DNA from: a virus
IMG/VR virus record: IMGVR_UViG_3300035671_000001
Coordinates: 1 to 64,000 of that record
Length of the DNA: 64,000 nucleotides
Strand: one strand, 5' to 3'
This document shows positions 2,643 through 43,469 of this stretch, one piece after another; position 1 is the stretch's first letter; each line of letters starts with the position of its first letter. The position numbers and the translations under genes were made by a program. The notes beneath the pieces are model-generated. The model saw only the letters and a program-made list of their open reading frames with translations, had not been told where the DNA came from and ran no database searches.

Positions 2643-3451
2643 AATAACGATCCTTGCGTTGGCTCCAGTGGTGCCGGTTCCTGCCGCTCGGGCTCCGGCT
2701 TCGGCGGCTCGGGCTGCGGCTTGTGGGCGGCACAGTACCAAGTACCGAGCTTGCCCCTCAATTGGCTGACGCCGAATCCAAACGCGCCCCATTCGCCGCA
2801 GTGGCAGTAATGGACGAAGTGGCCATCCTTGTCATAGCCGACGAAGCCAGCGCGATATCTCAAATCAATCAGCTCGGACATTGGTCGCAACTTGTCTTCG
2901 TGCATGACCCAATTGCCTTCTGTCATGTTCTCGTCTGAACTTACGACGCGGTGCTGCTCCTTGAACTGGCGCTTCGTCGCCCAGCCGGCAGGAAACCATT
3001 GATCGTCATGTGTGTGCTTCATCAATACGAGCGCGTCAAAAATCTTCTTGTCGTAGGTTCGCACTTTGTTGGCCGGCCAGAGCAAATGTCGTGAAGTGAA
3101 CTTCGTGGATTTTACATCGAGCACCCAACCGCGCCAAGGCACATCGCCTCCGTTATCTGGACCGGCAAGCCACTGCACATGATCTTCTGGGTTGCTGTAA
3201 CCGCACCAGACAGCGAAGGCGCATTCCGCCATCTTACTGTAGAACCAGCCCTCAAAATTTTTCTCGAAGTTGTGCGTCGAGTAGAATCGCGATTCCGGCC
3301 AATCGCCTTTTGCGTAGCCGTCGATCACTTGTTGAGCGTAATTACGGCAACGTTCTTTCAGCGCATCATTGAGCGCTATCAGCTTCGTAACCACGACAGG
3401 TCCATCCTTCGGTCGTTCCACGAGCGAACAATTCAAGACGTGTCTTTTCAT
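2639..3451 (-). CDS. Putative PD-(D/E)XK nuclease-like protein with C-terminal Zn finger (start uncertain)
   Basis: AE.AF ... PDNGGD ... LDVKS pattern; HYCHCG...WYCAAH. Confidence 0.5.
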   Translation of the reverse strand: MKRHVLNCSLVERPKDGPVVVTKLIALNDALKERCRNYAQQVIDGYAKGDWPESRFYSTHNFEKNFEGWFYSKMAECAFAVWCGYSNPEDHVQWLAGPDNGGDVPWRGWVLDVKSTKFTSRHLLWPANKVRTYDKKIFDALVLMKHTHDDQWFPAGWATKRQFKEQHRVVSSDENMTEGNWVMHEDKLRPMSELIDLRYRAGFVGYDKDGHFVHYCHCGEWGAFGFGVSQLRGKLGTWYCAAHKPQPEPPKPEPERQEPAPLEPTQGSLF

Positions 3452-6560: not shown

Positions 6561-7559
6561 ATGCCGCGTTCAGCAGTATGGCCAACCCTACGATACGGCG
6601 ATCTAGAGCGGGTCCACTCAATTGTCGAACAGGTAACGCCGGAGATGGCCAACGCCAAGATTCCCGGCGCGCTGTTCGAACGACAGCGACCGCTGCGTAA
6701 AAGCAACATTCTCAGATTGACTAACGAGATGAGGGAGGACCGCTTCTTGCCGGGAACGCAGATCGTGTTCTGCGTCACGCCGGATAACAAGGAAAGACTG
6801 GTCAACGGGCAGCATACGCTGACGTGCATTATCGAATCCGATCGGCCGCAATGGCTCACGATCACCTACATGCGGGCCGACAATATCGAGGATGTGGCAC
6901 AAATCTACAGCGTCCTCGATACGCAAGCGGTTCGCACCGTAGGCGATGCTTGTCGCGCGCATGGAGAGGAGATCACCTCAATTCCATATTTCCGGCAGCT
7001 CGCTTCTGCTGTGGGCATCATCGAGAACAACATGGAGCAGAAGGTAAGTATCAAGGGGCCAGCCTCGCGCGCTGGCCGCATCGCGCTGATGAAAGAATAC
7101 GAGGTGGCGGCACGAATGTTCGCCGGCACGATTGAGAGCGGCGGGCATGAACCGAAAAGCCGTATTCTGCGTGCAGCCATTATGGCCGTTGCGTTGGTGA
7201 CATTTCAGTATCAACCGTCGCTTGCGGCAGAGTTTTGGTCGGGTGTTGCCGATGATGAGGGGCTGGAGCGAAGGTCACCTGAGAAGACTTTGCTCACATA
7301 CCTGCGGGATGCGGATCGAAAGAAGTACCAGCAAGCGGGCGGTTGGCTACAGCGACAGATGCGCGTGAAGGCTGCGACATTGTGCTGGAATGCCAAGTTT
7401 CGAAACGAAGAACTTGAATTCATCAAACTCAACGCTTTCAAGCGCTATCGCTTGCTGGGCACGCGCTTTCATCACGGACTCTTCGACGACGAAACCGAGA
7501 TGCCTGATCCCATCATGTCGGACGAAGACAGCGTCGCCGCTTATTCCACGGGGAGCTGA
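6561..7559 (+). CDS. ParB-like/DGQHR-like N-terminal domain protein (in-frame upstream ATG at 6462)
   Basis: RQRPL...LVNGQHTL motif; AAAGGAG RBS at 6546-6551. Confidence 0.55.
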   Translation: MPRSAVWPTLRYGDLERVHSIVEQVTPEMANAKIPGALFERQRPLRKSNILRLTNEMREDRFLPGTQIVFCVTPDNKERLVNGQHTLTCIIESDRPQWLTITYMRADNIEDVAQIYSVLDTQAVRTVGDACRAHGEEITSIPYFRQLASAVGIIENNMEQKVSIKGPASRAGRIALMKEYEVAARMFAGTIESGGHEPKSRILRAAIMAVALVTFQYQPSLAAEFWSGVADDEGLERRSPEKTLLTYLRDADRKKYQQAGGWLQRQMRVKAATLCWNAKFRNEELEFIKLNAFKRYRLLGTRFHHGLFDDETEMPDPIMSDEDSVAAYSTGS

Positions 7560-7569
7560 GAGGTGTGTG

Positions 7570-8532
7570 ATGACGGCGCAGCTCAAATTCACCAAGTGGT
7601 CGGGCGGCTCGGTGGGCCGCCCCGGCCTATACGAAGACATGAGACTTGATCACTACCATGGCCGCGATGTGTGCGACGGCGTCTCGATCAGCTCTAGCGG
7701 ACTTCGCACGATCTTTAATGAAAGCCCGGCGCATTATTGGTGCGGCAGCGTGTACAACAAGGAGCGTATCGAGGAAGAGCCGAGCCGAGAAATGGTGATT
7801 GGGCGGGCCATGCACCATCTGATGTTAGGTGAGCCGTATTTCGCTGAAATTTTCCGGCGCGCGCCCACCGAGGTGCCAGATGCCAAGGGCGTTCTCAAGC
7901 CGTGGAGCCTGCAGCTCAACTACGCCAAGGAGTGGCGAGACGCGCGCAAGCGGGAGGGCAAAGAGATTATCTTTCCGAAAGAGGTTGAGCTGATCGAGGG
8001 CATGGCGCGGGCGCTCGGTGCACACGAGATGGTGCAGGCGGGCGCTTTCGACGGCTATGTCGAGCGCTCCGGATTTTGGCGCGACAAGGAGACTGGGATA
8101 TGGCTCAAGATCAGGCCCGACGTGATCCCGTCCGATAGCGGTGACGTCTGCGATCTCAAGACCACAGCGAGTGTGCAATGGAAAGATTTGCAGCGCACCG
8201 TTGCCGAGCTGGGATACGTTCAACAATTTGCACTGATGCGAGAGGTGCTCCGAAATCTCGGATTTCCGTTTGCCAGTGCCACGTTGATCTTTGTGGAGCG
8301 CAAGCCGCCGCATTGCGTGCGTGTTGTCTCGCTGCGCTCTACCGATCTAGATCGTGGCCAGCAGATGAATCGGTATGCGCTGCGGACGTTTGTGCGCTGC
8401 TACAAGTCGAAGAAGTGGCCGGGGCCGGGCGGGACGCGCCGGGACGCCGAAGAAATTTGGCTGCCGGATTGGGCTCGTGAAAGCGTCGAGGCCAGATTGG
8501 CCTCTATGCAAGAGGATGAACAAGCCGCATAA
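7570..8532 (+). CDS. RecE/exonuclease VIII-like PD-(D/E)XK exonuclease
   Basis: YH....ISSSGLR, G.A.H..ML, K.RPD....DLKT, GY..QFA motifs. Confidence 0.85.
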   Translation: MTAQLKFTKWSGGSVGRPGLYEDMRLDHYHGRDVCDGVSISSSGLRTIFNESPAHYWCGSVYNKERIEEEPSREMVIGRAMHHLMLGEPYFAEIFRRAPTEVPDAKGVLKPWSLQLNYAKEWRDARKREGKEIIFPKEVELIEGMARALGAHEMVQAGAFDGYVERSGFWRDKETGIWLKIRPDVIPSDSGDVCDLKTTASVQWKDLQRTVAELGYVQQFALMREVLRNLGFPFASATLIFVERKPPHCVRVVSLRSTDLDRGQQMNRYALRTFVRCYKSKKWPGPGGTRRDAEEIWLPDWARESVEARLASMQEDEQAA

Positions 8533-8545
8533 TATGTTTGCGGAC

Positions 8546-8581
8546 AGCCATCTGGCATGAGTGCACCAAAATTTGGGAGCG
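8546..8581 (+). ncRNA. Solitary TIGR unit
   Basis: AGCC-ATCTGGCAT-GAGTGCACC-AAAATTTGG-GAGCG, followed by a hairpin at 8589-8618. Confidence 0.8.
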
Positions 8582-8588
8582 ACTACAG

Positions 8589-12480: not shown

Positions 12481-12809
12481 GCGAGTCATTCCCTCCGAGA
12501 GCACCAAACAAGCCGAGCGAGCCACGAGCGCTGAGTGTGCCCATACACCGGAGCGAGCCAAAGTAGAGGAGAGCACCATTTCCGAGGAGCGAGCCAAGAG
12601 CGGCTAGAGCACCACGCGAGAGGAGCGAGCCAAAAAGCAGAGAGCACCAAATAAGCTGAGCGTTAAGCCAGTGAACGGGTGAGCACCAAGTCGCGCGAGC
12701 GAGCCACGGGCTGGGAGAGCACCACCGAAACTGAGCGAGCCACTTCTACGGAGAGCACCAGACACGTTGAGCGAACCATGACTTCAGAGAGCACCCGAGA
12801 AATTGAGCG
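12445..12809 (+). ncRNA. TIGR array, 10 units
   Basis: 36-nt dual-repeat periodicity. Confidence 0.9.
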
Positions 12810-13122
12810 AGCGTTGCTTCTGTCAATCGAAGAAGATGACTGGAGTAAACGCTCGCTCACTGACGCCAGCGGCAAGGTGATTGGATTCTTCTTGCACCCG
12901 GAGGATCGCGATCTCGCAGTGAGCGCGCTCGAAGCGCAGAGCAACGTGCTCACTATGATGGACACATTCGTCGAGGCGCTATCCTACATTGCCAATCCAG
13001 ATACTGATCCGGAAGCGGCACGCGCGGTCGCTGCCAAGTGCGCTGACAATGCGAAGCGCTATGCCGACTTGTTCTGCAAGATTACGCCCGTCGAATTTAT
13101 AACAACCATAGTGCCATCATAA
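12778..13122 (+). CDS. Hypothetical protein, probably starting within the last TIGR unit
   Basis: In-frame ATG at 12778; a guide matches its DTFVE codons synonymously, supporting this frame. Confidence 0.5.
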   Translation: MTSESTREIERALLLSIEEDDWSKRSLTDASGKVIGFFLHPEDRDLAVSALEAQSNVLTMMDTFVEALSYIANPDTDPEAARAVAAKCADNAKRYADLFCKITPVEFITTIVPS

Positions 13123-16809: not shown

Positions 16810-16812
16810 GTG

Positions 16813-17178
16813 GGCTCGCTCCTGCGCCTTGGTACTCTCTACAGCGCTGGCTCGCTCATGCAATGTGGTGCTGTCACTTCTTTTGGCTCGCTCTCAAAAC
16901 GTGGTGCTGTCTCTTGATGTGGCTCGCTCGTCCGACTTGGTGCTCTCCACCAATATGGCTCGCTCCGCCGATATGGTGCTCTCAGACTCCACGGCTCGCT
17001 CTCGACCTATGGCGCTCTCAACGGGCGTGGCTCGCTCCGGCGATCTGGTGCTCTCGCGCTGGTTGGCTCGCTCCGGATTTCTGGTGCTCACAGATCACGT
17101 GGCTCGCTCGCTAAGCGTGGTACTCTCGTCTCGTATGGCTCGCTCTCCCGGCTTGGTGCTCTCAGAGACTTTGGCTCG
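16813..17178 (-). ncRNA. TIGR array, 10 units, minus strand
   Basis: Plus strand shows GGCTCGCTC-N9-GGTGCTCTC-N9 repeated ten times. Confidence 0.9.
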
Positions 17179-17293
17179 TCAGCGCCCTCTTTACATTTGC
17201 GGCCATTATGGCCTATGGAGGGACAGCCGCCCCGGCTCGCCGCGCTAACGGACGAGCCAGGACTTGCAAAGGTGACCGTTGGAGGCGGTCGCA

Positions 17294-20617: not shown

Positions 20618-21709
20618 ATGGCAAAACGTCCTACTCATAAGAAGTGTCGGCAGTGCGGCGAATGGTTCATGCTCGGTAAGTACGAGCGCCTCACGCGGAA
20701 GTTCTGCACTTATAGCTGCGCGTCCACACATCGCAACGCGCAGCCGAAGTGGAAAAAGCGTCAGAGTAAACTGATGAAAAAGTTGGCGACGCCGGAAGTC
20801 ATGCGCGAACGCTCGCTCAAGATGTGGCGTGATCCTGCCATGCGTGCTCACCTGTCGGAGAAATCACGACAGCAGGCCAACACCAAAGAGCATCACGCCT
20901 GGATGATAGAGCACAATAAGAAACTGTGGACGGCTCCAGAGTACGCCGAATTTCGACAGCAGCACAGTGAGCGCACTCGCAAGACGGCCAAGAAACAATG
21001 GGATGATCCGGCGTTTCGCGAGAAGATTAGTGCCTTGACGACCGAGGCGAATAAGAAGCGCTGGGCCGATCCGGAATACAAAAAGCGAGTCGGCTTCAAG
21101 ATCCGTATCGCATTCGCTCAGCCGTTGTCAAAAGCAAAGCGTTCAAAGAGTTCACGCAAACAGATGATGAGACCGGAGCAGCGAACGCGGATAAGTAAGC
21201 TATCGAAAGAGCTGTGGCAGAATCCGGAGTACCGCGCCCTCGTAACCGAAAGCAGCCGAGCTGCAGCAATCAGGAATTATCGCAATCCATTTTACCGAGT
21301 AAAGAAACTTGCGGCGTTACGAAAATGGGTGCAGTCGCCAGAAGGCCGCGCACAGATGTCCGAACTCAATAAGAAACGTTGGGAGGACCCGGAATATCGT
21401 GCGCGGCAAAAAGCTCTATGGACGCCAGAAAAGAGCGCCGCGCTAAGTGAACTGAATAGAAAACGATGGGCTGATCCCAAGTTCAAAAAGCGCGTGGCAA
21501 AGAAGATTAGTAAGGCGAGACTCGAGAACACCAAGACACTCAGTGAGCAGAGCGAGCGAAGCAAAAAGCAATGGGCCGATCCAGAATTTAAGGCGCGTGT
21601 GAGTAAAAAAATCAGTAAGGGAAAGCGAGCCAAAAAAAAAAACGAGAACACCATCCAAGTTGAGCGAGCCACCAGAACTGAGAGTACCCGAAAAGGCGAG
21701 CGAGCCTAG
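20618..21709 (+). CDS. Zn-finger plus W-x-D-P-E-[YF]-R repeat (NUMOD3-like) basic nucleic-acid-binding protein
   Basis: KCRQCG...KFCTYSCA; about 10 K[KR]xWxDPE[YF][RK]-like repeats; C-terminus reads into the TIGR array. Confidence 0.65.
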   Translation: MAKRPTHKKCRQCGEWFMLGKYERLTRKFCTYSCASTHRNAQPKWKKRQSKLMKKLATPEVMRERSLKMWRDPAMRAHLSEKSRQQANTKEHHAWMIEHNKKLWTAPEYAEFRQQHSERTRKTAKKQWDDPAFREKISALTTEANKKRWADPEYKKRVGFKIRIAFAQPLSKAKRSKSSRKQMMRPEQRTRISKLSKELWQNPEYRALVTESSRAAAIRNYRNPFYRVKKLAALRKWVQSPEGRAQMSELNKKRWEDPEYRARQKALWTPEKSAALSELNRKRWADPKFKKRVAKKISKARLENTKTLSEQSERSKKQWADPEFKARVSKKISKGKRAKKKNENTIQVERATRTESTRKGERA

Positions 21710-22066
21710 CAGACGGACAGCATCATAATAGACGAGCGAGCCAAGATTAGTGAGAGCACCACGTCCGACGAGCGAGCCACGAAAGTTGAGAGCACCAAAG
21801 TGGCAGAGCGTAGCCAGAGAAAGTGAGAGCACCATTTTGAGCGAGCGAGCCATGTCCTGTGAGAGTACCAGACAAGACGAGCGTTAAGCCACTTGAAGCG
21901 AGAGTACCAAAACGAGTGAGCGAGCCAAGCGCGAAGAGAGCACCATGCAAGTTGAGCGAGCCATGTCCCATGAGAGTACCAAAAATCAGGAGCGAGCCAA
22001 GCGAGCCGAGAGCACCAATAGTCAAGAGCGAGCCATAACTACAGTGAGTACCAGAACAGGAGAGCG
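21623..22066 (+). ncRNA. TIGR array upstream of tas, about 12 units
   Basis: 36-nt dual-repeat periodicity ending 3 nt before the tas ATG. Confidence 0.9.
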
Positions 22067-22069
22067 AAA

Positions 22070-22858
22070 ATGACAGACGTTGCAGCAGTCCAAGCCTTAA
22101 CGCGTGATCTACGAAACGCCGCCGCGACAATGACGCGAGACGAAGCGCGATTCCTCGTTGATGCGTATTACATCATTCAAGACGATCGGAAGCGATCGGC
22201 CAACCAAGTGCGTTCTATGAAGGAGGAGCCACACGCCGTCCTTCAGTGGTTCTTCGATCAGAACGTCACGCTTGAAGGACAAATCAAGCGCGCCCTCGAT
22301 TCGTATTCCGACGCCAGCAAGATCGGCCTTTGGATGAAAGGAGTTTACGGAATCGGCCCGGTGATCGCGGCCGGGCTGCTCGCGCATATTGAGATCGACG
22401 ACAGCACTCCAACCGTGGGTCACATCTGGCGCTTTGCCGGACTTGATCCGACGGTGAAGTGGGAGAAGGGCCAGAAGCGGCCGTGGAATACTCAGCTCAA
22501 GACGCTGTGCTGGCACATCGGGCAGAGCTTCATGAAATTCTCAGGCCGCGACGAATGCCGCTATGGTAAGTTCTACCTTGCCCGGAAAAAGTTTGAAGTC
22601 GAGCGCAACGACTCAGGCGAGAACGCTGAGCTGGCGAAGACGCTGTTGCCGAAGTTCAACAAGAGCACCGACGCATACAAACATCTGCTCGGTGGGAAGC
22701 TGCCGCCGGCACAGATCGATGGGCGTGCACGTCGGTGGGCGGTGAAGCTTTTTCTCTCCCACATGCATGCTCAGTGGTTTAGATTGGAATTGGGCAAGGA
22801 GCCCCCCAAGCCATACGCGATTACGCAGCTCGGACATGGACACATGATTGAGCCATAG
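22070..22858 (+). CDS. tasA: TasA-like Nop-domain RNA-guided DNA-binding protein (IS110/IS116 Tnp_20-related; no RuvC or HNH domain)
   Basis: Coiled coil followed by GIGPVIAAGLL ... IWRFAGLDP ... WN..LKTLCW.IGQSF ... Y..RK ... ARRWAVKLFL; lacks a DEDD RuvC domain and the IS110 catalytic SG loop; embedded in dual-spacer arrays. Confidence 0.85.
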   Translation: MTDVAAVQALTRDLRNAAATMTRDEARFLVDAYYIIQDDRKRSANQVRSMKEEPHAVLQWFFDQNVTLEGQIKRALDSYSDASKIGLWMKGVYGIGPVIAAGLLAHIEIDDSTPTVGHIWRFAGLDPTVKWEKGQKRPWNTQLKTLCWHIGQSFMKFSGRDECRYGKFYLARKKFEVERNDSGENAELAKTLLPKFNKSTDAYKHLLGGKLPPAQIDGRARRWAVKLFLSHMHAQWFRLELGKEPPKPYAITQLGHGHMIEP

Positions 22859-24779
22859 GGTTTGAGAGCACCATCGAAGTCGAGCGAGCCACACGGACAG
22901 AGAGCACCACGATCATGGAGCGAGCCACGGACCTAGAGAGCACCACATAGGCGGAGCGAGCCAGAACACTTGAGAGCATCACGCGTGAGGAGCGAGCCAG
23001 ACGAGACGAGAGCATCATCCTCGATGAGCGAGCCACTGCGGCTGACTGTACCTATAGGAACGAGCGAGCCATTCTACACGAGAGTACCAAGCGAGCCGAG
23101 CGTTTCAGCCATGTAGAACGACAGCATCAGAGCCGAAGAGCGAGCCATGGGAGATGAGAGCACCACGTTGACAAAGCAAGCCATGATCTTTGAGAGCACC
23201 AAGCGAGCCGAGCGTTAAGCCAAGGAGCAAGAGTGCACCACATTGTGCGAGCGAGCCAGAAAACGCGAGAGTACCAAGGCTAGAGAGCGAGCCAAACCGT
23301 AAGAGAGCACCACAAAAAGCGAGCGAGCCGAGGGAGCTGAGAGTACCATATATGAGGAGCGAGCCATAAAGCGCGAGAGCACCATCCTCGACGTGCGAGC
23401 CATGCTCACTGAGAGTACCAAAATGAGCGAGCGAGCCAGAGCCCAAGAGAGCACCATCTGCTCAGAGCGTAGCCAAATGAGCAGAGTCGTACCAACATAG
23501 GAGAGCGTAGCCAAGATCGACGAGCGTACCCTGTCGGAGGAGCGAGCCAAAGACGATGAGAGCACCATGGTGAATGAGCGTAGCCACAAGACAGGACAGC
23601 ATCATGCGATTTGAGCGAGCCACTTCCCAAGAGAGTACCAAGCGAGCCGTGCGAGCCATGGGTAGCGACAGCACCATATGAAGAGAGCGAGCCACCGTTG
23701 ATGAGAGCGCCATGCCAAGCGAGCGAGCCACAGAACTTGCGAGTACCATGTCGTAGGAGCGAGCCAGCGGTAACGAGAGTACCATGGCGACGGAGCGAGT
23801 CATCGCCGCAGAGAGCACCACACGAAGTAAGCGAGCCAATGCGCGTCGAGAGTACCAAATAAGATGAGCGAGCCATGCAGGACGAGAGCACCATCACGCC
23901 AGAGCGCAGCCACAGCCACAGAGAGCACCATCGCTTAAGAGCGAGCCTTACCAGACGAGAGTACCCTACGATCAGAGCGAGCCAAGTCACAGGAGAGCAC
24001 CAAGCAAGGAGAGCGAGCCAGGGCGAGAGAGAGCACCACTACGCGCGAGCGAGCCACGGCGATTGTGAGTACCACGAAAAATGAGCGAGCCTTGTAAGAG
24101 GAGTGCACCAAATCATATGAGCGAGCCTTCGGCCGGGTGAGTACCATTGAACATGAGCGAGCCGGAAAACGCGAGAGTACCAAAAAGCGTGAGCGAACCA
24201 ATGACGAAGAGAGTACCAAAAGGAATAAGTGAGCCAGGGTGTGAGAGAGTACCAAGCGGGCCGAGCGTAGCCATCGGCAGGGAGCGTGCCATATGATCAG
24301 AGCGCTAGCCACGTATGATGAGAGCACCAAGCGCAGTGAGCGAGCCAGTAGCCAAGGGAGCACCAAGTCGGCCGAGCGTTTCAGCCATGCTGATGGAGTT
24401 GCACCACATCAGACGAGCGAGCCTTCCCGCCGGAGAGTACCAAGCAAGCTGAGTGAGCCGTGAAGTCTGAGAGCACCATATCGGCGGAGCGAGCCACGCC
24501 GAACGACAGTACCAAACCCGCCGAGCGAGCCAACGCGATCGAGAGTACCAAGCTGACCGCGCGAGCCATCGACCGCGAGAGCACCATTGCGCATGAGCGA
24601 GCCACGTCGATCGAGAGGACCAAACCACAAGAGCGAGCCAACCAGCGCGAGAGCACCAGATCGCCGGAGCGAGCCATACCGTTTGAGAGCACCACAGAAG
24701 CTGAGCGAGCCTGCGCAGTAGAGAGCACCAACGCAAGAGAGTGAGCCACCCACGATGAGAGTACCACGCCCCGTGAGCG
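22850..24779 (+). ncRNA. Main TIGR array, about 53 units
   Basis: GAGCGAGCC-N9-GAGAG[CT]ACC-N9, period 36 nt, with occasional 1-4 nt insertions in the GAGCG/AGCC repeat. Confidence 0.95.
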
Positions 24780-24849: not shown

Positions 24850-24886
24850 AAGGCCCGCTCGGGCGGCGAACCCCGGCGGGCCTTTA
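24850..24886 (+). terminator. Hairpin closing the main array transcript
   Basis: AAGGCCCGC...GCGGGCCTTT. Confidence 0.5.
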
Positions 24887-25573
24887 ACGCGAGCAACCTA
24901 TTATTCTAAGGCGGGTTGCTGCGCTCCTCGAACACCTGTGAGGCAGGTGCCGATGCACAATACCTACATTGCGATTCGGTTCCGCGCAAGATTTTGTGCA
25001 CAGGGTTATGCCCTGTCCACAAAGTGTTGTGTCTGATTTGCGACATTAACGGGCTGCTAGCGAAAGCTGGTGGCCCTTTTTGCGTTTGCTGGAGCCTCGA
25101 ACGTGCCGCACGTCGGTAGAGAGGCGGCCAGCGCCCGGACCATCTAGGGCGATCTGAGGGATGCTGAGGCCGGTCAACAGATGGGCGATGAGCCCTGAGC
25201 AATACGGTCGGAGGCGCCTGGACCCTAGAGTCGCCGGGAAGGAGGCCGGGAGGCGGTGGTCTGGTGTTCGAACGCCCACTGCCGCCTCCTCGGTCCACTG
25301 CCCTGTGAGGCGGTGCGGAGCCGGGTGTGAGCGCCCTCTCGGAGGGAGTGCTGGCCGCAGGGCGCCGATAGCAAAATCATGTGGCCATGGACCGTGGCGG
25401 AGTGACGACCGTCATAGGTGCCCGTAAGGGCGGGACAGTCGTCCCCAGCACCGGATGACTTCTCAGCTCATGGTAGCTGAGCCTCATCCGGGTGTTGGAG
25501 GACTCTAGAAGGATTCGTAGCCGAGCAGAAAGCTCTCTTAGAGAACACTCTCTCAAAGGAAATGGATGGATTG

Positions 25574-31832: not shown

Positions 31833-31925
31833 ACAGCGCAGAAGGCAGCCGCGTGCTGCCTTCGACAGTGTTCATTCGAACGCTACGCCTCTTGCAAATT
31901 GGCGTCCCTCACTGGAGTCACTACA

Positions 31926-32822
31926 ATGAATAAACCAATCAAAATCGCAACGCCGCTCTCTCGAAAGGCGGTGCTTGTCTCTGTGAATATCTCGCAGTGG
32001 ACGGCGCGAAAGTTGGATCGCAAGGTCACCGACGAAGTTAACCGCGCGCACAACGCGGCCAAGGACGCCGGGCGATACAACAAGCTCTTGATCGAGGCCG
32101 AGCACTTGGCCGAAGTCAACAAGCTGGTTTCGAGTGCCAGGAGCTTGCACTACAGCATGACGCGGCCGTGGGCGGACGAGGGTCCGCGCATTCTGCCAAA
32201 CGCGCTCTACTCGAAGTTCACTGACGCATTCCGTAACTTGAAGCGTGAGTTTCAGATTGCGGCTGATGCGTTCTGCGCCGGCTATCCGAGCTTCGTTGAA
32301 GAGCGGAAGAAATCTTTGAACGGCTTGTTCAAAGAAGCGGACTATCCGTCAGCGAACGACATCCGCAACAAGTTCAAGCTTGAATTGAACGTGTTGCCAT
32401 TGCCAGACGCAGAGGACTTCCGCACCGATCTTGATCCCGACACGCTCGCGGACATCAAACGCGAGATGAGCGAGACTTCCGGCAAGGTGCTTGACGATGC
32501 AATGAAACAAACATTCGTTGAGATCACCGAGCTGGTCGGCCACATGGCCAAGAAGTTGAACGAGCAAACGGCCAAGACCAAGCAGAAAGGCGAGCGCAAA
32601 TTCTATCTCGACTCGCTCGTCAACAACGTGCGCGACTTGGCTGACTTGTTGCCTGCCTTCAATCTGACTGACGATCCGAAGCTCACCGCTATCACCAACC
32701 GCATTGCTAAGGAGCTATGCGTGGAAGATGCGAAGGAGCTGCGGAAGAATGACGAAGCTGCCAAGACAGTCGCCAAAAGCGCTGACGAGATCGTGGCCGA
32801 GGTGGCCAAATTCCTCGGCTGA
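31926..32822 (+). CDS. DUF3150-like protein
   Basis: KAVLVSVNISQW.ARKLD ... T.PW...G.RILP ... LF...DYPS; typical partner of the AAA and vWA genes. Confidence 0.65.
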   Translation: MNKPIKIATPLSRKAVLVSVNISQWTARKLDRKVTDEVNRAHNAAKDAGRYNKLLIEAEHLAEVNKLVSSARSLHYSMTRPWADEGPRILPNALYSKFTDAFRNLKREFQIAADAFCAGYPSFVEERKKSLNGLFKEADYPSANDIRNKFKLELNVLPLPDAEDFRTDLDPDTLADIKREMSETSGKVLDDAMKQTFVEITELVGHMAKKLNEQTAKTKQKGERKFYLDSLVNNVRDLADLLPAFNLTDDPKLTAITNRIAKELCVEDAKELRKNDEAAKTVAKSADEIVAEVAKFLG

Positions 32823-32840
32823 TGATACTCTGGTGCTCGC

Positions 32841-32877
32841 GAGCCACTGCCTCGGAGAGTACCAAAGAACGAGAGCG
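32841..32877 (+). ncRNA. Solitary TIGR unit
   Basis: GAGCC-ACTGCCTCG-GAGAGTACC-AAAGAACGA-GAGCG. Confidence 0.85.
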
Positions 32878-32972
32878 ATACTAAGTGGGCCGTCCGAAAG
32901 CGCGGCCCATCATAGTGTTGCGGACTGCAACATTCCCCGCTGCAACGGGGCAATTTAATACGGAGTCACCAA

Positions 32973-34436
32973 ATGCATAACGACAAACATGCGATGGATC
33001 GTGTCCTAAAGGCGCGCTCCGCGCTGATATTGGCCCGCCGTTTTTACGGCGTACTGGTGTCGAATGTTGAGCCCGTTCTTTCGCATGACGTTCCGACGGC
33101 CGCGACGAACGGCAAGAAGCATTTCTGGAATCCCGATTTCATCGCTGAACTGACGCAGGCACGTCTTGAGTTTGTGCAAGCGCATGAGAGCGAACACGAT
33201 GCGCGCCACCATGGTACGCGTCGCGGCGATCGCGATCCGAAAAAGTGGAATGAGGCCACCGACTTTGGGATCAATATCGATCTCAAGGACGAGGGCTTTG
33301 ATGTTCCGCCATGGGCGTTGCTTGACGAGCGATTCCGAGGCATGAGCGCCGAGGATATCTACCGCATGCGCGAGCTTGACGAACAGAACAACAAGCCGCA
33401 GCCGCAGCCCGAGCCTGAGCCCGAACAGGGTGAGGATGAGGGCGACGACGCCGACACCGACGAGGACAAGGGCGACGAGCCTGAAGCTTCCGACGAGGAA
33501 GGTGACGAGGAAGGCGACGAGGGCCAAGGCGACGACGGTGAAGACGGCGACGAAGAAGGCAAGGGTGAAGGCCCGGCCGACGACGGCGATGAGGAAACCG
33601 ACGGCGGCCAAGGCGCTGGCGACAGCGAAGCGGAAGGCGACGGCACGGGCGAAGGCACGGGCAGCGCTGACGGCGACGCTGATGGTGAGCCCGGCGAGGG
33701 CCAGCCGCAATCGTCCGGTGATCCCGGCCGCTGCGGTGAGGTGCTCGACGCGGCTGAAGACGCTGGCGATCTCGCTGAGATCGATCAGAAGTGGGAACGC
33801 ACGGTACGGCAGGCGGCTTCGATGGCGAAAGCGATCGGGCAGCTTCCGGGTCATGTCTCCCGCGACATCGAACGGGCCAACAATCCTGGCCAGGACTGGC
33901 GCGAAGTTCTCCGCGCTTGGTTCGATCAAGGCTCGCTGCAAGTCGAGACTTGGAACCGGCCGAACCGACGCTTTGTCGGGGCTGGCTTGTTCCTTCCCGG
34001 CAAGCGGCGGGACGGTATCAACCGGGTTGCGTTTCTGATCGATACGAGCGGATCGATGGACACCATCGCGCTGGCTTGTATCAGGAACGAAGCGCAGGCC
34101 GCGCTTGATGACGGTGCGATTGATGAGGTGATCGCCGTGTACGGTGACACGCAAGTCACTCGCGTCGACACTTGGCGCACGGGCGACGAGATCGAGTTCG
34201 ATCCCCGTGGTGGTGGCGGCACGCGCTTGCGTCCGCTGTTCGATTATGTGGCCGAGCAGGCTGACGATTGCTCTCTGATCGTTTGCTTTACGGATATGGA
34301 ATTCGAAGATTTGAATTCCACCGAGCCTCCGGCTTGTCCGGTGCTGTTCGCAGCGACGGGCTATCCCGACAAGGTTCGCAGATATCTTGCCGATGCTCCT
34401 TGGGGAGCGGCTGGCATTGATGTCGGCGCCCACTGA
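32973..34436 (+). CDS. DUF2201-type metallopeptidase plus vWA-like domain protein
   Basis: TAATNG...NP.F, HESEH, acidic linker, DWR.VL, IDTSGSM, GGGGT, FTD. Confidence 0.85.
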   Translation: MHNDKHAMDRVLKARSALILARRFYGVLVSNVEPVLSHDVPTAATNGKKHFWNPDFIAELTQARLEFVQAHESEHDARHHGTRRGDRDPKKWNEATDFGINIDLKDEGFDVPPWALLDERFRGMSAEDIYRMRELDEQNNKPQPQPEPEPEQGEDEGDDADTDEDKGDEPEASDEEGDEEGDEGQGDDGEDGDEEGKGEGPADDGDEETDGGQGAGDSEAEGDGTGEGTGSADGDADGEPGEGQPQSSGDPGRCGEVLDAAEDAGDLAEIDQKWERTVRQAASMAKAIGQLPGHVSRDIERANNPGQDWREVLRAWFDQGSLQVETWNRPNRRFVGAGLFLPGKRRDGINRVAFLIDTSGSMDTIALACIRNEAQAALDDGAIDEVIAVYGDTQVTRVDTWRTGDEIEFDPRGGGGTRLRPLFDYVAEQADDCSLIVCFTDMEFEDLNSTEPPACPVLFAATGYPDKVRRYLADAPWGAAGIDVGAH

Positions 34437-41270: not shown

Positions 41271-43469
41271 ATGGCGATGCAGTTCAGCACATGGATGACG
41301 CGTTGGGACCCGAACGAGTACACCTTGTTCCGGCATCGCCTGCGCGGCGTGCAGTTCATCGGCCCCGACGTCATGCGGCGCTGGGACGTCACGCTGGCGA
41401 CGAACAGCATCGACCTCAACGATCCGATTATTCCTGCCTTCAAGGACGCGCTGATCAAGGAGGGCATCCTCCTGCCCGCGCGCGCGGAGTTGATCTTCGC
41501 GGCGGAGACAGGAGGCGAGCCTCCAGCCGAAGGGCAAGGGCCGCAAGGTCCGGCGGGACCGCCCGGCGCGACTGGGCCAGCGGGGCCAGCAGGGCCAGCA
41601 GGGCCAGCAGGGCCAGCGGGTCCACCGGGCAGCGGAGCTGGTGGTGGAATCGAAGAGGCGCCGATCGACGGCCAGCTCTACGGCCGCAAGGATGCGGCGT
41701 GGTCGCAGGTCACTGGAACGGGCGGACAGCCGGGGCCGGCAGGGCCTCCGGGACCGGCAGGCGCGGACGGCAAGGACGGCAAGGACGGTAAGGACGGCAA
41801 AGACGGTGCGCAGGGGCCGCAAGGTGATCAGGGTCCGCAGGGCACGCAGGGACCGGCAGGACCGGCCGGGGCCGAGGGCGTGCAGGGTCCGGCAGGTCAA
41901 GGTGGCGTGCAGGGCGTGCAGGGTGAGCCGGGACCGCAGGGATCGCCTGGGCTGAATGGTGCGCCGGGGTTGCCGGGATCACCGGGTGCGCAAGGCCCGA
42001 CGGGCGCGGACGGCGCGCCAGGAGTTGGACTGCCGGGCGCGGCAGGGCCGCAAGGTTTACAGGGACCGGCGGGCGTGGACGGTGCGCAGGGTCCGGCTGG
42101 TCCCGAGGGCGCGGTCGGCCCGCAGGGCGTCGCGGGCGGAGTTGGTCCGCAGGGAATCCAAGGACCCGGAGGCCCGCAAGGCGTGCAAGGCGAGCCGGGG
42201 TCGATCGGCCCCGCCGGCGCGCAGGGTGCGCAGGGCATGCAGGGGCCGTCCGGTGACACTGTCACGATCATCGGCAGCTTCAGTAACAAAGCGATCGCTG
42301 ATCTACCGCCGTCAGGCTACGTGCCTGCGGATTGGGATTCGCCCGGCGTGCCGCCTCTGGGCAACCAGATGGCGAACGGCCAGGGCTTGTTGCACACGCC
42401 GACGCAAACGGTTTGCTTGTGGGTTGGTCCAACGCTCACGCCCTCGGGTTGGGTCGAGCTGGGGAATGTGCAAGGTCCGATTGGGCCGACTGGTGCGGCG
42501 GGGCCAGCAGGCGCGCAAGGTCCACAAGGTGTGCAAGGTCCGCCGGGAGCTGATGCTGCGCCGGGTCCAACGGGAGCAACCGGCGCGGCTGGTCCACAAG
42601 GGCCGCAAGGTGATCCGGGTGCGCAGGGTATTCAGGGCATACCGGGATCACCGGGCGCTGCCGGAGCGCAGGGCGCGCAAGGCCCGCAAGGCATCGCTGG
42701 TCCGCAGGGCGCCAAGGGCGATCCTGGAACGCCGGGCCTGACTGGCGCGCAGGGTCCGAAGGGCGATACCGGTGCGCAGGGAACGCCGGGATCGACGGGC
42801 GCGCAGGGTCCGGCCGGAACGCAAGGCGTGCAAGGCGTGCAGGGCGTGCCGGGTCCGACTGCGGTGTCGGCGAATGCAGGCAACACCGCGACGCTCGGCA
42901 CCGACAATCTGATCTATGTGCCGACGCTGCCTCCGGCCTCTAACGCTACGCCGACGATGGACGGCACGGCGACGGTTGGTGTTGCGACGGCCTGGGCGCG
43001 CGGCGACCATGTGCATCCGAGCGACACCTCGCGCATGGCGAAGGTCGGTACGACAGCCGTTGGCAACGCGGCGGCCGGCGAGATCGGCGAGGTGCTCTCG
43101 ACCAGCGTCACCACCGGCGTCACGCTGGCCAGCGGCACGGCGGCGAACGTCGGGACGCTGAGCCTGACCCCGGGCGACTGGGACGTGAGCGCGCAGCTCG
43201 TGTTCAACCCCGGCACCAACCTCACCATCATGGCGGCGGCGATCTCGCTGACCTCGGCGACACTGCCAACAGCAGCGCAGCTCGCAGCGGGCACCGGGGC
43301 GATGCAGCAGTTGCGCGCATCGTTCGCGGCCTCGGCGGCCGAGATGCTGCAGAGCGGGTCGTGCCGCGTGAACGTCAGCACGACCACGACCGTCTACATG
43401 GTGGCGATGGTGACCGGCACGGGGACGTGGACGGGGACCGGCTTCATCAGTGCGCGCAGGCGGCGCTGA
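41271..43469 (+). CDS. Collagen-like (G-X-Y repeat) fibre protein
   Basis: Long GPAGPQG repeats; EAP.DG..YGRKD..W; ARGDHVHP. Confidence 0.85.

Follow-up and report, generated by a model that had tools for sequence, protein, structure and literature searches.

A phage TIGR-TasA guide matching a silent variant of its own tas gene, possibly directed at the tas allele of close relatives

The second guide of the main TIGR array in this soil phage specifies a silent variant of the last codons of tas, the gene for the effector of the same system, and this relation between guide 2 and tas is real and not the product of chance. As a tentative reading, which we regard as plausible though short of probable, guide 2 would be aimed at a variant tas allele of close relatives while being linked to an immune resident allele. 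The window, i.e., the whole stretch of DNA that was analyzed, comprises the first 64 kb of an 82.5-kb single-contig soil virus record.

The locus is a phage dual-repeat TIGR-TasA system. Its tas gene (22070-22858, plus strand) encodes a 262-aa TasA-type protein with a Nop domain and a coiled coil and without a nuclease domain. A profile of 38 tas family members matches TaTasR (PDB 9mty; E 4e-18, chain residues 124-321) as well as SpTasH (E 1e-12), with the IS621 transposase as a weaker match; the alignment with TasR omits the N-terminal region of the latter, which holds RuvC and the D11 active site. In Pfam, the tas product gives only a weak, sub-threshold match to Transposase_20 and no match to a nuclease family; it also matches PHROG 4285, and its family contains 5867 homologues, the closest being ~70% identical. 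As the protein is too short to include a RuvC or HNH domain and matches neither, it was assigned to TasA. Both H256 and H258 are invariant in the family alignment, and Y249 and H256 are spaced 7 residues apart, the same as in the processing dyad of SpTasH (Y289/H296); judged by sequence, a C-terminal Y/H loop for pre-tigRNA processing is predicted to be present in this TasA.

For comparison, 118 loci with tas orthologs were gathered from viral, metagenome, and genome collections. Most of these display the same two repeats and the same overlap between the tas stop codon and the first truncated edge repeat as are found here. No conserved nuclease gene neighbors tas in the 118 related loci, and a promoter scan of the present locus yielded no convincing promoter for either tas or the arrays. 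Upstream of tas, ORF 20618-21709 encodes an N-terminal zinc ribbon followed by approximately ten basic W-x-DPE-[YF] repeats, falls into no Pfam family, and overlaps with its 3′ end the first units of the upstream TIGR array. This zinc-ribbon repeat ORF was ruled out as a conserved partner of the system, being absent from the 118 related loci.

Arrays flank tas on both sides and are built from two alternating 10-nt repeats, GAGCGAGCCA (edge) and GAGAG[CT]ACCA (loop), with 8+8-nt spacers and a 36-nt period. At least 83 regular units were parsed, with ~12 upstream of tas, ~53 downstream, and the remainder in five other arrays or standing alone (at 8541 and 32837); in all, the seven arrays and two solitary units span 30 kb. 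The upstream array (21623-22053, plus strand) stops 17 nt before the tas start codon, while the main array (22846-24779, plus strand) ends in a 3′-truncated edge repeat, GAGCG, at 24775-24779. The first edge repeat of the main array (22846-22855, plus strand) is 5′-truncated (GAGCCA, 22850-22855) and shares sequence with the last tas codons, E-P. That GAGCGAGCCA is the edge repeat follows from the main array opening with its 3′ part and closing with its 5′ part, as well as from the tolerance of insertions in mid-repeat. Both repeats contain CCA, and both begin with GAG instead of the UG of box D; divergent box C/D motifs are allowed if they covary between edge and loop (PMC12045711). Downstream of the main array lie a terminator-like hairpin with a T-run (25051-25086, plus strand) and, as read directly from the sequence, a further GC-rich hairpin (~24851-24886).

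This architecture agrees with that of the described dual-repeat TIGR-TasA systems (Faure et al. 2025, PMC12045711; Xu et al. 2026, 10.64898/2026.09.09.750476) with respect to (i) a solo-Nop Tas protein homologous to TasR/TasH, (ii) CCA repeat ends, (iii) truncated edges at both array ends, (iv) an array on both sides of tas, and (v) carriage by a phage element. The present phage differs from them in distributing its at least 83 units over seven arrays plus two solitary units, in its 8+8-nt spacers, and in that guides at its array boundaries come close to matching the adjoining genes, with differences that are silent.

Unit 2 of the main array consists of spacer A, CACGGACA (22892-22899), the loop repeat (22900-22909), and spacer B, CGATCATG (22910-22917). 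By the published TIGR rules, the two spacers pair with opposite strands of the target, spacer B next to the stretch paired by spacer A; the 16-mer specified by unit 2 is CACGGACA followed by CATGATCG, i.e., CACGGACACATGATCG. This A+rc(B) construction, already used in the preliminary description of the locus, is the correct geometry, as no other arrangement accounts for both the 8-nt 3′ overhang and the C-5 rule described in PMC12045711. At 22835-22850 (plus strand), tas reads CATGGACA followed by CATGATTG, i.e., CATGGACACATGATTG, which covers codons H256-G-H258-M-I and the first base of E261 and agrees with guide 2 at 14/16 positions. The match between unit 2 and the tas 3′ end had been reported earlier as 15/18; its coordinates and letters hold, and the match is real, but that figure takes in one repeat base at each end (22891 is the last base of the edge repeat preceding spacer A, and tas 22834-22851 is ACATGGACACATGATTGA), and the true 8+8-nt spacers give 14/16.

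The near-target starts on a codon boundary, and in the tas frame both the guide and the resident version encode HGHMI(E), as previously proposed. Both mismatches (CAT/CAC and ATT/ATC) are synonymous third-position C/T transitions; in pairing terms, spacer A has an rC:dA mismatch at its position 3, and spacer B an rG:dT wobble at its position 2. Located 32 nt upstream of unit 2 at the tas/array junction, the near-target lies 8 nt before the tas stop codon and shares 5 nt with the first truncated edge repeat. The predicted 36-nt tigRNA 2 (22887-22922, plus strand) would comprise a half edge (AGCCA), spacer A, the loop GAGAGCACCA, spacer B, and a second half edge (GAGCG); its processing in mid-edge is one that we infer from published work (PMC12045711) together with the tolerance of insertions at mid-edge. 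Folding of the RNA from 22815-22935 gave a z of -0.98, with no structure worth claiming.

By itself, a 14/16 match at some place in the genome is unremarkable and expected by chance. Guide matches with ≤2 mismatches in the 82.5-kb genome numbered 10-11, relative to 5.2 ± 2.8 in re-paired controls, and no match in this genome was better than 14/16. For a match with ≤2 mismatches to fall inside tas, the controls gave P ~0.04; a tas match with synonymous differences only was encountered in 0 of 5000 control sets. Adjacency was also non-random. Within 300 nt of their own units, two guide matches with ≤2 mismatches were seen against 0.03 expected genome-wide (in non-array DNA), and four guides had near-targets at ≤3 mismatches against ~0.3 expected, two of them at 2 mismatches and two at 3 (0.03 and 0.26, respectively, in re-paired controls). 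Three such local near-targets were reached by none of 300 re-paired controls, which err on the conservative side because every shuffle restores about one genuine guide pair. All four local near-targets occur in the A+rc(B) geometry, with none at ≤3 mismatches in rc(A)+B.

The differences are all synonymous in three of the four local pairs, i.e., for tas (2/2), a DUF3150-like gene (3/3), and ORF 12829-13119 (3/3); in the fourth, an exonuclease VIII-like gene, one of two differences is silent. Genome-wide, and with one frame per gene, synonymous-only matches at ≤3 mismatches numbered six as compared to 1.1 in controls (P ~0.02), with none at all in the rc(A)+B geometry. The silent near-match pattern of the other guides hints that they, too, aim at the gene variants of relatives while sparing the phage.

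Each of these sibling guides sits close to its site. The solitary unit at 32837-32882, directly 3′ of the stop codon of the DUF3150-like gene (31923-32819), matches the KNDEAA codons of that gene 77 nt upstream (32745-32760) at 13/16. The solitary unit at 8541-8586 comes after the exonuclease VIII-like gene (7369-8529), the 3′ end of which carries its site (8453-8468; 14/16, the non-silent difference being L to M). Unit 12733-12778, the second-last of the 12.4-kb array, has its site (12961-12976; 13/16) in ORF 12829-13119, ~150 nt downstream of the array. For the perfect target of the solitary unit at 32837, 22 exact matches were retrieved, none in homologues of the neighboring gene. Separately, two consecutive main-array units (24523-24604) each match a DUF2201 metallopeptidase/VWA gene (32916-34433) at 14/16, and at its sites (33358 and 33829) the differences change amino acids.

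The reading that fits best is that of a guide against a competitor's allele, given that all tas differences are silent, that the match is in the functional geometry, and that double mismatches have been published to cause a loss of activity. Retention of a coding-allele sequence in the guide, silent differences in its neighbor, and adjacency of the two are what would be expected of a guide directed against the alleles of relatives. The target of tigRNA 2 would thus be a synonymous variant of resident tas codons H256-E261, present in a non-resident allele carried by closely related, co-infecting phages. TasA would bind this sensitive version, in which 22837 and 22849 are both C, while the resident allele would escape via its two third-position transitions, with guide 2 staying tightly linked to it. 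In SpTasH, which uses 8+8-nt spacers, single mismatches are tolerated at positions 2 and 8 only, and adjacent double mismatches abolish cleavage; in ParTasR, two edge mismatches that are individually tolerated together abolish editing. As two mismatches abolish TasR/TasH nuclease activity, the resident tas site should be spared.

TasA represses transcription at matched sites without cutting (preprint 10.64898/2026.09.09.750476). On binding a rival's tas/array junction, the nuclease-less TasA of this phage would obstruct the passage of transcription or replication across that rival's TIGR locus and stop read-through into its main array; binding might also favor recombinational replacement of the rival's tas/array region. 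We infer from the above that a sensitive allele exists and that TasA would discriminate between the two versions, potentially with an effect on competitors and a gene-conversion advantage. A parallel is found in virus-borne mini-CRISPR arrays, the guides of which are thought to exclude close relatives and spare the carrier (Medvedeva et al. 2019, PMC6858448); there, as here, the guides borne by a virus are related to that virus's own genes. In those viruses, however, protospacers are found in related viruses and a host Cas nuclease acts; for the present phage, the search for a matching relative was negative, and its own genome encodes the effector, which lacks a nuclease.

The competitor's tas allele had already been put forward in the preliminary description; the silent differences and the functional geometry suit that proposal, but our searches yielded no sensitive allele. 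A perfect guide 2 site is absent from 87 tas orthologs, the best of which reach 14/16 at the homologous motif (HVHMIE), with none at 15 or 16. The exact guide 2 16-mer has six matches in IMG/VR, none of them in tas or near TIGR repeats. In a C-terminal-region search of Tas-length proteins among 5.8 billion proteins, HGHMI was unique to this phage, the second member of the HGHMI protein cluster being the same DNA. A single-protein search of genome contigs returned no relative, a metagenome scan returned six loci only, and the sole sequencing run with the locus, a soil DNA metagenome that is probably its source and is available as contigs only, which would hide rare variants, contained no variant at the site. 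Absence of the allele from these sources is weak evidence and no refutation, since the collections may omit very near records.

Anti-tas guides as a general trait of the family were ruled out. Across 995 guides and 88 tas genes, counts were equal to those in re-paired controls and in the non-functional geometry, and the same held for synonymous-only counts. Per 71 loci, synonymous-only self-matches to tas numbered two (this phage and L106) against 0.05 expected. In L106, a Pyrinomonadaceae MAG, unit 2895-2940 lies just upstream of tas and its site (3095-3110) covers the VDAYY codons of that locus's own tas with three silent mismatches; the L106 guide also matches five other tas genes with 1 mismatch. 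When the flanks of the 77 other loci were considered, L106 provided the sole synonymous-only near-target against 0.28 expected, which alone is not significant. As a side observation, a guide of another phage (L015, 3173-3218) matches the AITQLG codons of this phage's tas (22819-22834) at 14/16 with silent differences, and none of its matches to its own tas, which is 69% identical to that of this phage, exceeds 9/16; for a family-wide screen, this L015 match is within the chance range.

A broader version of the kin-directed reading, which we hold to be somewhat unlikely, treats TIGR units as RNA-guided poison-antidote or homing-like cassettes, with each boundary or solitary unit placed next to an immune version of its target that has been recoded silently. 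When relatives infect together, TasA would bind the allele that lacks this recoding, also at the relative's tas/array junction, and the linked region would gain an inheritance advantage. The free-standing homing endonuclease genes of T-even phages (seg/mob) are intergenic and lie tens to hundreds of bases from their recognition site in a neighboring gene, with the resident site immune through protein-preserving substitutions. The units in the present phage resemble them in that the unit adjoins its site and the resident site is altered with the protein unchanged. They differ from seg/mob in that recognition would be carried out by a 36-nt RNA with TasA, and in that no DNA cut is expected, the nuclease domain being absent.

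Among the rival explanations, that of a relic of spacer birth survives best, though we judge it rather unlikely. According to it, units were made from array-flanking DNA or from the ancestral tas end, were once perfect, have since drifted, and have no current target. The local nature of the signal is in keeping with such an origin, as a distance of 30-180 nt separates each of the four significant near-targets from a boundary or solitary unit, the three non-adjacent synonymous-only matches are near chance level, and no external target was found; spacer gain by TIGR arrays is moreover an open question in the literature. However, a split arrangement with one half inverted cannot arise by simple duplication, and the repeats of unit 2 are fully canonical. 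Were the spacers drifting neutrally, non-silent changes would be expected as well, whereas nine of the ten mismatches in the four pairs are silent, an outcome with a probability of ~0.06 under two-sided drift by a rough calculation.

Weak autoregulation, the other proposal of the preliminary description, is disfavored, and we find it quite improbable. By this account, the imperfect resident site is occupied by TasA-tigRNA 2, which would weaken the transcription that runs on from tas into the array, and the position of the site exactly at the tas/array junction, on the transcribed strand path, is consistent with such a role. An imperfect match of a locus-encoded guide to its own locus has a counterpart in the Cas9 long tracrRNA, through which a partly matching guide autoregulates the CRISPR locus; those sites are in promoters, and the partial match avoids cleavage. 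The site here is instead at the 3′ end of a gene, neither in nor near a promoter, and there is no nuclease to restrain: mismatches are useless to a nuclease-less effector, for which a perfect spacer could evolve freely. In terms of binding, one of the two mismatches is an rG:dT wobble, TasR partly tolerates gaps and edge mismatches, and repression of transcription is possible for TasA (preprint 10.64898/2026.09.09.750476); against this, spacer A position 3 adjoins the seed and is not among the positions at which SpTasH tolerates single mismatches, and ParTasR editing is lost with pairs of edge mismatches. Furthermore, a comparable self-match occurs in only one (L106) of the 70 other loci among the 71, i.e., the feature is not conserved, and the same silent-mismatch pattern is found beside unrelated genes.

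Chance resemblance between the genome and one of ~83 short guides is very improbable, for although 16-nt targets yield many false matches, as the literature warns (~5 at 14/16 expected per genome), the P for a match inside tas is ~0.04, and the hypothesis was framed after the match was seen, this explanation is opposed by the adjacency of the site to its own unit, the silent-only differences, the restriction to the functional geometry, and the three sibling cases in the genome.

The TIGR-TasA system itself is of an already known kind. The novelty lies in a guide that has a silent variant of the gene for its own effector as its sole near-target, set within a genome-wide silent-neighbor pattern; in the literature searched, no TIGR paper was found that links a tigRNA to self-targeting, synonymous variants, homing, or superinfection. 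Natural TIGR targets and spacer origin are open questions in both PMC12045711 and preprint 10.64898/2026.09.09.750476. For each guide considered here, a perfect and a resident site are defined, and the candidate rule that guides adjoin silent variants of neighboring genes can be checked over thousands of arrays. Should this rule hold, TasA systems without a nuclease would serve related phages in competing with one another, with tas among the targets; if the cassette reading were true, it would provide a first natural target class as well as a first hint as to the spread of TIGR units.

Several minor features of the window complete the description. In units 23062, 23174, and 23613 (spacer B) and 21990 (spacer A), the spacer is the edge repeat itself (AGCGAGCC), which also serves as spacer B in units of two related loci (L049 and L055). 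The edge following units 23062 and 23174 is expanded (GAGCGTTTCAGCCA and GAGCGTTAAGCCA, respectively), and that following 23613 is a substituted 10-mer (GTGCGAGCCA); in units with an edge-repeat spacer, spacer A approximates the reverse complement of spacer A in the next unit. Guide units are also held in common between the main array (24451-24676) and the minus-strand array at 16812-17181, with the ACCAGCGC/GATCGCCG unit identical in both, and with TGAAGTCT/TATCGGCG and TGGAGTCT/TATCGGCG differing by one base between main-array and minus-strand units. Finally, at 41574-42849, tandem repeats of 9, 18, and 27 nt (GGN-rich, collagen-like) lie within a long ORF region that probably encodes a tail-fiber-type protein.
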